A stretch of 64,000 nt of DNA from Desulfobacterales bacterium (GCA_963668645.2 CAXXWC010000018.1:512001-576000); one strand, 5' to 3'. Positions 44,300-50,370 are shown, counted from the first letter of the stretch. The notes: generated by a model not told the origin, from the sequence alone. A program made the numbers and translations.

Positions 44300-46844
44300 T
44301 TAAATGATAAATACGCGATTGTATTGTGCGTATTGCCGTGAAGACATTTCGAATGGTTCAAGCCTGCTAAAAGTATGGGAGATTTAGGTTGATAGATAAG
44401 GATATACCAACGCTTGAGCTGGACACTTTTGTAAGATCTGTAGGCGTAAACAGAGGCTCGCCCCACGCTCTCTTTTTAGGTGCCGGCGCTTCAATGTCCT
44501 CAGGTGTGCCATCTGCAAAATCATGCATTTGGCAATGGAAAATGTCTATCTTTTGTACGAACAACCCCGGCTTCGAAGAGCAGGTATCGGAAATATCACT
44601 TAAGGCAGTGCAAAACCGCATCGACCGGTGGCTTCAAGTAAATGGATATTATCCTGATAAAGGTGAAGATGAGTATTCCTACTTCATCGAGAAATGCCTT
44701 CCAATTGCTGATGACCGAAGACGTTTTTTTGAACCCTGGATTCGAAAGGCACGCCCACACGTAGGGTATCGACTGTTATGCCTTTTGGCCGAAGTGGGAC
44801 TATTCCGAAGTATTTGGACTACTAACTTTGATTGTTTGGTAGCTCGAGCCGCTTCAGAGTTTGACCTAACTCCGGTTGAGGTAGGGATCGATTCCAAAGA
44901 GAGAATATTCCGCCAGCCAGAGCGGAACGAATTGATGTGCGTCTCCTTGCATGGTGACTATCGCTACGATCCTTTGAAAAACACGAGCAAAGAGCTCCAA
45001 GCACAGGAAATTGAACTCAAAAATGCCCTAGTTTCGACGCTCAAGACACATTCTCTTGTTATAATAGGCTATAGCGGAAGAGACCCTTCAGTTATGGATG
45101 CAATACGAACAGCCGTTTTCCAGGAAAATGCGATGGGGAAAATATTCTGGTGCGGCTTTTCAGATGAACCTTCCAGAGATGTGGCAAGTTTGCTGATAGA
45201 TGCAAAGGAGAAGAAAAGACAAGTCTATTATGTCCCAGGCACAGCTTTCGATGACGTTCTGACACGGATAGCCCATCATTGCTTGGAAGGGAGCCACCTT
45301 AGTAGTGCGAAACAGATTCTTGGTGACTATGCTGAAAAAGAAAAATTACAGTTAAATGCGTTTTCCTTTCCACAAGGTGATCCAACCACACTTATTAAAA
45401 GCAATGCTTGGCCGATTGTATGTCCAACAGAAATGTTTGAGTTTCAGCTTCGTGAATGGCCAAATAAGCAAGTTTGGAAATGGATGTCTCAAAAGACAGC
45501 AGGACATCAGGTCGTTGCAGTACCTTTCAAGAAAGTCCTGGCACTTGGAACACTTGATGGTATTCGTGAAATATTTAGCGATCTAATTGATGGTGAAATC
45601 CAACGAGTGCCAATTTCCGATCAAGATATTCGTTACGAGGACGGGGCTGTTGTTAGCCTTTTGCGCCAGGCTTTGGTTCGAGCCATTGCCAGCAAGCGGG
45701 ACCTTTGTTCTGATGGAAGTCGGGTACTGTGGAAAAATGGAAAATACACGACAGAACGAGAGGGTGGCAACCCGTACGATGTCCACCATGCCGCACATCT
45801 TGCATTGCGTCGTATCGGCGGGCAGATGTACGTTACGATTGACCCGACCGTTCACTTTCCCGCTGAGAATTCGGATAACGAGAATGCGATTCGAAACATC
45901 CGAATGAGGATTCTAGGGTACCAGCACAACGATAAATTCAATAAGGCTCTGAACAATTGGAGGGGGCTGATTCTGACGCCAAATGAGCCAACTGAATTCG
46001 ATTTTCCAGTAAAAAGTGCCTCATTTCGATTCGTTATAAAGAGTGCCCCCGCTTTTGCATCCATTAGGCAACCGCGAAGAGGCTCAATAAAACTTCCAGA
46101 CGATTTTGGGCGACTTATTCACCACCACGGCTTTGAAATTCCAGAACAGAGCCTTCGGTTTAACGGTAGGGCAAGACATACCGCTACAGATACGCTTCCT
46201 TTGCGCGGACTTGCAACTCACGGACCCTTTGACCAAAGCTTTGTCCCACAGGCAGACGATGACCGAATCAGAGTAGCAGTTATATGCCCACGAGCAGAAG
46301 CCCCGTTTCTTGAAAAATTCCTATCAGAAGGATTACAGATACATAATCCACAACGCGGTGCTAAAGAAGAATACTTGGTTCCATACACAGGGTTTGAAAA
46401 AATTTTTCGCGTACCGGTAAAATTCCCAAGTCGTGGAGATCCTCTTTGGTACACAATTCCAGAGATTGATTCACAGCTTGATCAACGCTCTGGCGCTCTG
46501 GAGATGTCTCGCAAAATTCGAGAAGGTGTTTCATCGCTATCAGCAGCGGGTAGGTCAGTCGTTCTCTATGGAACCACAAAACGGTTGGATTCTGTAAAAT
46601 CAGTATGTTATCCGATTATTTTTGCCATACTTGATCATATTTTGCGATTCTCAAGGAGCCTGTGCTTTCGTTTTCCGGGGTGTCGGCTTTGCGTCTAACT
46701 CATAGAAAACACATGTAATGATTGTCATTTACGATAGATGGCTATCCTCTTTTTCGTTCTTGTCAAATCGTCCATTTCTTGATAATGTATTGCATATATG
46801 CCCGGTTGCGGCGATAACCTGCAATACTTTATCGGGAGGGCGAT

Positions 46845-47504
46845 ATGGATGGTTCGACCGAGGTTTCCCAGCGTCTCGCGGTCCTGTTCAAGCAGCATCC
46901 ATGCTGGATGATCGGGCCGCTGAGCCAACAGATGGACTACTCGATTCCATCAACCCGGCGATTTCTGGCCCAGAACGGCTACTACAGCAGTTTTACGCAC
47001 AACGGACGATGGTATACCCTGCGTTCGATTCCTCGCTTTTCGCGCGAAGGACTGTGGTTTTACCACGACATCGGCTTTTCCCGGGCCGGCAGTCTGACCC
47101 GTACGCTGGTGGCCCTGATCGATGCCAGTCTGGCAGGGATGAGCGCCGAAGCGCTCGGCCAAAAGTTGCGCTGCCGTTGTCATTCGGTTCTGGTCGGGTT
47201 GTACCGCCGCGGTCTTGTCCAGCGCCAGCGCCAGGGACGCGCGAACGTTTACCTGGCCAGCAATGCCAGGACCGCCGAGGCGCAACGTCGTGTCCTGGAA
47301 GCGCCCGTGGCGGCGGTGCTGCCAGCCGAGATTGCAGTGATGGTGCTGGCCGAATTCATCCGCAAGCCGTCAGCCGAGCCGGCCGAGTTGGCCCGCCGGG
47401 TGTCGGCCCGGGCCGCCGTGCGCATCAAGGCCGACCAGATCCGGGCGCTGTTTGCGCAGCACGGTTTAAAAAAAATGCTGCCGTTGCGGCCATCGGCCTC
47501 CTGA
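46845..47504 (+). CDS. IS ORF A (putative DNA-binding protein)
   Basis: GGAGG RBS; 219-aa ORF inside the IS that ends just after an A8 run. Confidence 0.75.
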   Translation: MDGSTEVSQRLAVLFKQHPCWMIGPLSQQMDYSIPSTRRFLAQNGYYSSFTHNGRWYTLRSIPRFSREGLWFYHDIGFSRAGSLTRTLVALIDASLAGMSAEALGQKLRCRCHSVLVGLYRRGLVQRQRQGRANVYLASNARTAEAQRRVLEAPVAAVLPAEIAVMVLAEFIRKPSAEPAELARRVSARAAVRIKADQIRALFAQHGLKKMLPLRPSAS

Positions 47505-49309: not shown

Positions 49310-50311
49310 GTCGTTCTCATATTTACGCCGGATCGATGGCGTCTTTGGCGTGGATTCAATAATTATGAGGAAAAATTTGATGTTCACGACTTTGTGAAAG
49401 CTTATTGCGTACAGAGGGGTATCTCAACCCAGTTTCTCGACCAAGACACCCTTGGTTACCATGATAAGTGTAGGGTGTGGTGGTGGTTATCTGTTGCCCT
49501 TTATTCCAAGGCTATGAGAACCCCATGGGTTCTCGACTCACTCGATCCTAATACCGCATTTGTTGGATTGGGTTACTCTATCGACCAGCGAGCAGACAAA
49601 GGTAGTCACATCGTTCTTGGATGCAGCCATGTTTACAATGCGCAGGGCCAAGGATTACAGTTTCGCCTAAGCCGTATTGAAAATCCGGCTATATTCGGCG
49701 GTAACCCATTCATGTCATTTCAAGATGCTCGAAGGTTGGGCGAGAGTATTCGTACACTCTTTTGGGAGTCTCATTTAAAGTTACCTTCGCGTGTTGTGAT
49801 TCACAAACAAACGCCGTTTCGAAGTGACGAACAGCGGGGGTTGCATGCGGGTCTTGAAGGTGTACAGGATTTGGAATTGATAGAAATTAACTTCGAGTCA
49901 TCCCTTCGCTACATAAATTCGCAACCACAGAATGGTAAATTCATAGAGGCCCGTTACCCCGTACGCCGCGGAACTGCGGTGAAGCTGACGGATCATGAAG
50001 CATTGCTTTGGGTGCATGGTTCGACTGAAGCAGCACAAACAAATTGGACCTATTATCAGGGCAAACGCCGCATCCCTGGCCCTGTTGTTCTCAGGCGATA
50101 TGCAGGCACATCGGATCTTGCTACTTTGGTCAGCGAAATTCTCGGACTTTCAAAAATGGATTGGAACTCTGGCGATCTCTATGCGAAGCTTCCAGCAACT
50201 ATTCAATCTTCGAAGCGTATAGCACGTATCGGATCGCTCTTGGATCGATTCAATAATTCATCCTATGACTATCGGCTATTTATGTAAGACAATGTCTAAA
50301 CGAGAAGAATC

Positions 50312-50370
50312 ATTTAACCACCGCGTGCATGGGACGGCGAAGACCATGCCGCCCATGACGCAGGTTATGC
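50312..50370 (+). other. Intact attC site (59 bp)
   Basis: ATTTAAC..GCGTGCATGGGACGGC/GCCGCCCATGACGC..GTTATGC with extrahelical bases. Confidence 0.88.

Follow-up and report, generated by a model that had tools for sequence, protein, structure and literature searches.

A predicted SPARSA-A gene on an integron-type cassette of a Desulfobacterales bacterium, interrupted by an insertion sequence

We describe a locus in a stretch of 64,000 nucleotides (nt) from the genome of a Desulfobacterales bacterium (GCA_963668645.2, CAXXWC010000018.1:512001-576000). This whole stretch is called the window, and all positions are window coordinates. Designations of the form L### refer to related loci, C## to contigs of the genome, and X## to sequencing runs. 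The locus includes a gene for a fused SIR2-APAZ-prokaryotic Argonaute (pAgo) protein, an insertion sequence (IS) that divides the gene into two pieces, and an integron-type cassette (44300..50364, plus strand) that contains the gene. The cassette is 6065 bp long with the IS and 3313 bp without it.

The 5′ piece of the gene (44389..46565, plus strand) begins with a TTG start and comprises codons 1-725 and two further nt. Its product comprises SIR2, APAZ, and the beginning of MID. The corresponding open reading frame (ORF), 44389..46698, is 769 amino acids (aa) long; it consists of 725 native codons and 44 IS-encoded codons and stops at 46698, inside the IS. The 3′ piece (49318..50287, plus strand) supplies the last base of codon 726, codons 727-1048, and the stop codon, i.e., the rest of MID and PIWI; an ORF of 297 aa (49394..50287) represents this 3′ half. 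The IS (46566..49309, plus strand; 2744 bp) is bracketed by two copies of an 8-bp target-site duplication, GTCGTTCT, at 46558..46565 (left copy) and 49310..49317 (right copy). The same 8 bp are single-copy at the empty site of L015, the closest related locus. Removal of the IS and one copy of GTCGTTCT leaves 3147 nt with 1048 codons and zero internal stops.

The protein encoded by the 5′ piece (725 aa, the N piece) aligns without gaps to residues 1-725 of an intact 1048-aa homolog, P0002, with 94% identity. The protein encoded by the 3′ piece (322 aa, the C piece) aligns, again gap-free, to residues 727-1048 of the same homolog with 98% identity. Codon 726, which is cut by the insertion, encodes leucine, the residue that P0002 has at this position. 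When the read-through protein is aligned with 97 full-length homologs, it matches the consensus at 241 of the 241 columns that are conserved at 95% or more. The ratio of nonsynonymous to synonymous substitution rates (dN/dS) between the read-through gene and the intact L015 gene is 0.156, with a dS of 0.13, which points to purifying selection with no visible relaxed phase. The initial annotation of the window had described the two ORFs as halves of one gene of about 1048 aa, separated by a 2744-bp IS with a target duplication, whose excision restores the frame with no other lesion. All of these statements agree with the alignments above.

The same annotation had named the product a SIR2-APAZ-Argonaute protein, and profile searches lead to the same identity. 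With the fused pAgo model PDLC02384 of PADLOC (1030 positions), the N piece gives a match over model positions 4-704 (720 bits, E = 1.6e-216), and the match of the C piece covers model positions 711-1030 (527 bits, E = 2.7e-158). The APAZ region is covered by PADLOC Aga_SIR2-PNTD (SIR2-PNTD1-PNTD2) models, which extend over residues 9-683 (E = 1.5e-94) and 47-558 (E = 1.1e-70) of the N piece. The N piece also has a match to Pfam SIR2_2 (4.8e-12) and to a Sir2 superfamily protein of the PDB (8jkz_A; entries 8jkz/8in8) with E = 6e-31. In the latter alignment the asparagine of the TTNFD motif (N145) and the histidine of the HGD motif (H188) correspond to N142 and H186 of 8jkz_A. Both are conserved, and we take them to be the catalytic residues of the SIR2 domain.

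The Argonaute part matches the 473-aa Piwi chain 8in8_C and thus contains MID and PIWI only, with no N or PAZ domain. Residues 10-322 of the C piece align to residues 154-473 of this chain, down to its last residue (E = 2.8e-45), and residues 583-681 of the N piece align to its residues 13-102 (E = 5e-07). The positions aligned to H166, K170, Q181, and K207 of 8in8_C, which presumably form the pocket for the 5′ phosphate of the guide, are conserved. In the full protein they lie at residues 749-790. The insertion at codon 726 is therefore within MID, upstream of these four positions and of the whole PIWI domain. We take the PDB entries 8in8, 8jkz, and 8jl0, whose chains are named "Sir2 superfamily protein" and "Piwi domain protein", to be the GsSir2/Ago system of Geobacter sulfurreducens, which belongs to clade S1B.

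Among the best 120 homologs listed, 101 are single proteins of at least 1000 aa, and 97 have a length of about 1045 aa. The fused state is therefore the norm in this family. Thus MID-PIWI homology is present in the rejoined protein, and the homologs are mostly single proteins rather than products of two genes, both as the initial annotation had supposed. Our putative assignment of the gene to clade S1A ("SPARSA-A") rests on the fused architecture and on the match to the fused PADLOC model. Passages of Koopal et al. 2022 (PMC9097488) define clade S1A as "SIR2-APAZ-pAgo fusions (SPARSA-A)" and report that a fused S1A protein reduces total NAD in E. coli. According to the same source, the PIWI domains of all short pAgos are without the DEDX catalytic tetrad.

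The IS has imperfect terminal inverted repeats of about 26 bp and a GC content of about 62%. The genome contains 11 full-length copies of it that are 100% identical, as well as fragments. A perfect 8-bp duplication of its own flanks each of the eight copies that were examined among these 11, and the duplicated targets have no common sequence. Therefore the boundaries of the IS are not those of a chance repeat. Its GC content (0.61-0.64) is close to that of the host genome (about 0.6), and the interrupted gene has a GC content of 0.45-0.46; flanks of six of the eight copies are at or below 0.51. Other identical copies (among L003, L004, and L007) split a GAF-HisKA-HATPase/triple-receiver hybrid histidine kinase and truncate a GGDEF response regulator and a DctP solute-binding protein. 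Two oppositely oriented copies are separated by 3 kb on contig C21. The insertion into the Argonaute gene seems to be recent, as the initial annotation had assumed, because the copies of the IS are identical, the target duplication is intact, and the gene has no other lesion.

Two reading frames are found in the IS. The first, orfA (46845..47504, plus strand; 219 aa), contains a run of eight adenines (47468-47475) just before its end. A −1 shift at this run, by programmed frameshifting or transcriptional slippage, would probably fuse orfA to the frame of the second, orfB (47476..49309, plus strand), which lies in the ORF 46718..49309 and is predicted to encode a DDE transposase of the Mutator/MULE-like kind. 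The match of this transposase to NCBIfam IS256 is weak (20.7 bits with a cut-off of 150), as are its sub-cut-off matches to Pfam MULE, ISL3, and Transposase_mut (E from 0.02 to 0.24). The nearest language-model protein clusters are named MULE transposase (score 0.99). The best tblastn match against plasmids has 24-31% identity over 38% of the query. These results are a lead for placing the IS at the superfamily level, as Mutator/MULE-like. An assignment to the family ISKra4 gained no support from NCBIfam, Pfam, the tblastn search of plasmids, or the protein atlas.

The gene lies between two sites of the kind expected at the ends of an integron cassette. The 5′ boundary is the core site GTTAAAT (44299..44305, plus strand; consensus G/TTRRRY), recognized from its sequence and from comparison with L015. 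The 3′ boundary is an attC site of 59 nt (50312..50370, plus strand) that consists of R″ (ATTTAAC), an imperfect hairpin, and R′ (GTTATGC), with the recombination point after the G at 50364. The bottom strand of this attC forms a fold of −17.4 kcal/mol in which two bases bulge from the R″-L″ arm. The R″ sequence at 50312 is the exact reverse complement of the GTTAAAT at 44299 (7/7 bases). Such complementarity would be expected if the cassette closes into a circle at the G/TT junction.

The strongest evidence for these boundaries comes from L015, a locus in a metagenome-assembled genome (MAG) labelled uncultured Desulfobacterium sp. It was the closest of 15 related loci found by a scan of the genome collection, 11 of which have complete genes. 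L015 contains an intact gene (6001..9147 of that locus; 1048 aa, TTG start) with no IS. In a blastn comparison the homology between the window and L015 covers exactly 44299-46566 and 49310-50364, with 95-96% identity and nothing beyond; the flanks are unrelated. The homology thus has as its limits the G of GTTAAAT and the first G of GTTATGC, and the attC is conserved in L015. As this comparison shows, the predicted cassette moved as a discrete unit between genomes. The initial annotation had given the cassette as about 3.3 kb between GTTAAAT and ATTTAAC with attC; the 3313 bp without the IS match this length, and the homology ends at the core-site G of either boundary.

The agreement between the start of a cassette and its R″ was also assessed elsewhere. 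Across the cassettes of the array to which this one belongs, it is 7/7 bases in four cassettes and 6/7 in a fifth. The rule holds in 4/4 cassettes of an array beside a true integron integrase gene (intI) of the same genome, which we used as a positive control. A homolog with 62% identity in a Thermoanaerobaculia MAG (L019) is bounded by GTTAGAT and by ATCTAAC followed by a hairpin, again with 7/7 complementarity, and a degenerate attC-like site was read by eye at L017. An intI above the cut-off is encoded in each of the L015, L017, and L019 genomes. In a control with mismatched pairs, loose matches occurred in 14 of 110, at more than 220 nt from the stop codon and with mismatches. Cassette matches at L018 and L025 were rejected as chance ones, having one mismatch, a distance of more than 220 nt from the stop, and long branched folds; their frequency is that of the mismatched control.

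Integron integrases were searched for with the model TIGR02249, which has a cut-off of 265 bits. Three tyrosine recombinases near the cassette score 58-75 bits against it, and the two full intI genes of the genome are found only on contigs C13 and C15. No clear further attC sites were found in the 40 kb beyond the C13 integron. Because there is no intI in the window or on its contig, C18, the surrounding array is an integrase-less cluster of cassettes and not a complete integron. Thus the initial reading of the gene as an integron cassette was correct as to the cassette ends, and the integrase that would complete an integron is missing from the window and the contig.

The insertion was also examined in sequencing reads; the initial annotation had suggested looking there for IS-free alleles. 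We found 24 runs that contain the stretch, none of them RNA runs, and four were examined. In run X21 both junctions of the IS are spanned by contigs without any difference, and the IS is covered about ten times as deeply as the gene, in keeping with 11 copies. X21 and X22 may be the data from which the assembly was made, and their support is only partly independent. In X1 and X2, which are metagenome runs, some parts of the IS have no coverage, which is uninformative. IS-free alleles were indeed seen. A contig of X1, a marine-sediment metagenome, joins 46557 to 49310 with about 2% differences, and an IS-free contig is present in X22, which is from the same sample as X21. The X22 contig must belong to another strain rather than to a revertant because it has 13 differences in 762 letters and 51 in 406. 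In addition, X21 has loose ends at 50363/50364, where other sequences are joined at the recombination point of the attC.

Taking these data together, we consider the following reading to hold with a probability of about 0.88: a 3.3-kb integron-type cassette carries a 1048-aa SPARSA-A gene of clade S1A as its only cargo, and this gene was cut by a recently multiplying IS that abolished its defense function. The single chain would carry an N-terminal SIR2 domain that degrades nicotinamide adenine dinucleotide (NAD+), APAZ, and a MID-PIWI part that is predicted to be catalytically silent. By analogy with relatives that have been characterized, MID-PIWI would load a small 5′-phosphorylated guide and bind complementary DNA of an invader. 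Binding of the target would then switch on SIR2, and the destruction of NAD+ would stop the invaded cell. The cassette could be mobilized only in trans, by one of the two intI encoded elsewhere in the genome. The IS, Mutator/MULE-like and apparently in a recent burst, would have removed the sensor half of the protein by its insertion at codon 726 and thereby abolished defense; the 769-aa frame with SIR2, APAZ, and partial MID remains. The insertion is most simply regarded as a non-selected event in dispensable, horizontally acquired DNA.

Several points weigh against this reading. As to the protein, the Pfam Piwi match is under the gathering score (17 bits versus 28.9), and no NCBIfam model matches either piece of the gene. 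As to the cassette, neither an integron integrase nor attI is present in the window or on contig C18, and its current mobility is thus unproven. A clean cassette signature was found in only two of the 11 loci with complete genes, and most members of the family are not cassettes. In L015 the bases after the final G of attC are CGTTCG and not TTRRRY, a non-canonical downstream context. Moreover, sequence rules and folding, and not the covariance model of IntegronFinder, were the basis on which the attC sites were recognized. A generic scan for AAC...GTT hairpins was poorly specific, with many matches in GC-rich coding DNA on both strands, and only clear short sites were read off. Nine attC sites were taken from the intI-linked arrays of the genome, and their 3′ ends are out of register in the MAFFT alignment. 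Finally, the neutrality of the insertion is something that we infer.

The last point leads to the alternative that the insertion was selected. In this case the gene would have been silenced either as toxic, through autoimmune depletion of NAD+, or as an obstacle to a useful plasmid. The initial annotation had proposed relief of toxicity as a possible cause. Short pAgo systems kill or arrest cells via NAD+ loss, and their overexpression lowers NAD, according to passages of Koopal et al. 2022 (PMC9097488). Besides, a gene without any decay apart from the IS is what one would expect if it was functional until the insertion. However, the IS inserts widely: its identical copies are found in kinase, GGDEF, and transport genes unrelated to this one, with no target consensus. 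The loss of the Argonaute sensor with SIR2-APAZ left whole is a poor route to the removal of NADase toxicity. Additionally, no integrase-side promoter is near the cassette, so expression may have been low already. We regard adaptive silencing as unlikely, and the proposal of relief from toxicity is not sustained by this locus.

An improbable variant concerns the product that is left. The 769-aa protein with SIR2, APAZ, and partial MID could still be made and be active as a deregulated NADase or a decoy. Its frame is open from the native TTG through 725 native and 44 IS codons, and the Asn and His of SIR2 and the APAZ region are intact. In related systems APAZ-effectors can act without the pAgo, as stated in part of Koopal et al. 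2022 (PMC9097488). Yet APAZ and MID-PIWI are normally on one chain in this family, and half of a MID domain followed by foreign residues would probably not fold correctly; moreover, RNA runs are absent from the runs that contain the stretch.

It could also be supposed that the gene is an ordinary defense-island gene flanked by core-site-like motifs by chance, given the lack of an integrase in the window, the nine of 11 homologous loci without the signature, and the 14 loose matches in 110 mismatched pairs. We find this very improbable. The homology with L015 stops, to the exact base, at the G of each core site, and the R″/start agreement is 7/7 here, in three other cassettes of the array, and in L019, the rule holding also in the integrase-linked array of the genome; the chance matches of the control, in contrast, are distant from the stop codon and mismatched. 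Lastly, a misplacement of the multi-copy IS inside an intact gene by the assembler is hardly credible: an exact 11-copy repeat is a classic cause of misjoins and an IS-free contig exists in the same sample, but separate k-mer contigs in X21 and X22 connect the unique sequence of the gene with either end of the IS without any difference, the IS-free contig of X22 is from another strain, and the IS lies between perfect 8-bp duplicates, as do seven other copies.

The cassette with the interrupted SPARSA-A gene lies in a low-GC (about 0.40-0.48) array at 34722..53400 (plus strand), in a genome of about 0.6 GC. A high-GC element with three recombinase genes (the trio element) and the IS, likewise of high GC, are inserted into the array. 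The first cassette of the array (34722-38719) encodes a calcineurin-like phosphoesterase (494 aa) and a GHKL/HATPase_c_3 protein (772 aa), both with weak PADLOC matches, and may be an uncharacterized two-gene defense cassette. Its boundary is GTTGGGC at 34721, so that the cassette itself starts with TTGGGC; GCCCAAC at 38668 is the beginning of its attC. Just upstream of this boundary there are seven tandem C-rich units of about 24 nt (34093-34279). Another attC (42939-42996) is located downstream of a 344-aa ORF. A second R″-like site, ACCTAAC followed by AACCGCTTGCA, is present at 42826-42938. It resembles the 5′ arm of attC sites in the C13 integron, has no clear 3′ arm, and could represent what is left of an attC or a mini-cassette without cargo.

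Downstream of the SPARSA-A cassette, the 5′ part of a group II intron (51697-52170; Rfam RF02005, 82.5 bits, full model) precedes a reverse-transcriptase-like frame of which only about the first 70 codons are present. This fragment stands directly after an attC-like site that follows a LysE cassette and resembles an attC-associated intron that has been truncated. At the distal end of the array there is a HicA/HicB toxin-antitoxin pair (52822-53384), as is common in chromosomal cassette arrays. At L015, the neighbors of the SPARSA-A gene are an Abi_C-domain protein and a NucS_C-like nuclease (9225-10013 and 3929-4849 of that locus), a defense-island setting.

The trio element exists in several copies. 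The full copy in the window (38720..41778, minus strand; 3.06 kb) contains three tandem genes of Xer-like tyrosine recombinases (38941-41692) and sits between the L′ arm and the R′ (GTTAGGC) of the preceding attC. A miniature, internally deleted copy (43631..44298, minus strand; 0.67 kb) is lodged in the attC that precedes the SPARSA-A cassette and abuts the 5′ boundary of the latter. Its left 280 bp correspond to 38720-39000 and its right 400 bp to 41386-41778, with 87-94% identity; at its left junction there are six extra bases, TTCAAA, which are absent from both full copies. The initial annotation was right about the GTTAAAT boundary of the cassette; the sequence just upstream is the end of this miniature and not a plain attC. 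A further full copy on contig C19 (L030, 2890-5950) is 96% identical and also lodged in an attC. Other ends of the element were found at L039 (about 1500-1885; contig C14, degenerate) and at L041 (1501-1650; another genus). In a search of 150 other genomes of the order, the right end gave a single weak match.

All three copies with readable left ends (the full and the miniature copy on C18 and the full copy on C19) have these ends inside an attC, just after the L′ arm. The right ends terminate with GGGGTTTGTTG, the start codon of the first recombinase being about 90 bp downstream in the direction of its gene, and a different gene adjoins each of them. After four of the five right ends (the full and miniature copies on C18, the full copy on C19, and the relative from another genus) GTTRRRY follows; in the degenerate C14 copy GGCACC stands after the terminal G. 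No long or convincing terminal inverted repeats were found in the element. One of the loose ends in X21, with a length of 40 letters, resembles a right end of the trio element placed directly before the next (bPH_2) cassette, with an exact match to none of the four assembled ends. This junction hints at an arrangement without the SPARSA-A cassette.

We liken the trio element to recombinase-in-trio (RIT) elements. In this element, too, there are three tandem, slightly overlapping genes of Xer-like tyrosine recombinases. It differs from RIT elements in the lack of long terminal inverted repeats and in the position of all three readable left ends within an attC, between L′ and R′; we know of no RIT element with an attC location. 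The layout is that of intI, attI, and cassettes but without an IntI-type integrase. The element could be a previously undescribed attC-associated mobile platform that either targets attC or captures cassettes itself, which we hold to be rather unlikely. If it were true, the SPARSA-A cassette would be the cargo of a second, non-IntI cassette system. The trio element may instead be a cassette of an unusual type. Its association with attC is the less expected part of the locus.

Apart from this, the locus is a further member of two known kinds, SPARSA-A systems and defense cassettes, with an ordinary IS knockout. The two-gene Sir2/Ago system of PDB entries 8in8, 8jkz, and 8jl0 has homologous SIR2-APAZ (6e-31) and MID-PIWI (2.8e-45) parts with the H/K/Q/K positions conserved. 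There the two are separate proteins in a heterodimer, whereas here they are fused, which fits the format of a one-gene cassette. The SIR2-APAZ-Ago protein of Joostella marina (S1A), as it appears in passages of Koopal et al. 2022 (PMC9097488), is likewise one polypeptide with SIR2, APAZ, MID, and PIWI. Unlike that system, to which we liken it by architecture and not by direct sequence comparison, the present gene is interrupted by an IS and located on an attC-bounded cassette.

As to cassettes, parts of Darracq et al. (bioRxiv 10.1101/2024.07.02.601686) describe 783 anti-phage defense systems on integron cassettes, which are small, streamlined, and never of more than two components. Here too a cassette of a chromosomal array carries nothing but a defense gene and has HicAB and other defense-like cassettes for neighbors. 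In contrast to those systems, this cassette is 3.3 kb long, encodes a 1048-aa protein, and belongs to an integrase-less array outside Vibrio. The words "Ago" and "SIR2" have 0 occurrences in the main text of that work, and its supplementary Table S4 may list pAgo. We found no report of a pAgo on an integron cassette in the literature, supplementary tables being outside the search, and absence is thus not proven. The array resembles clusters of attC without an integrase (CALIN), as the part of the IntegronFinder work (PMC4889954) that introduces the term defines them: consecutive attC-bounded cassettes, no intI nearby, and intI elsewhere in the genome. Darracq et al. use the term CALIN in their methods as well. 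It differs from a plain CALIN in having also been invaded by the trio element, its miniature, the IS, and the group II intron fragment.

An Argonaute this large on a cassette is unusual. The locus extends the storage of anti-phage defense in integron cassettes from very small systems to an Argonaute-NADase of 1048 aa in 3.3 kb. SPARSA-A is found on a cassette in at least two distant lineages, one represented by the window and L015 and the other by L019, and it may be the fusion of SIR2-APAZ with the pAgo (S1A as opposed to the two-gene S1B) that permits the cassette format. A natural knockout that is free of other lesions, with intact alleles of 94-98% identity beside it, is a convenient pair for testing the function of SPARSA-A. 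The locus also illustrates how a burst of an IS erodes a store of cassettes.

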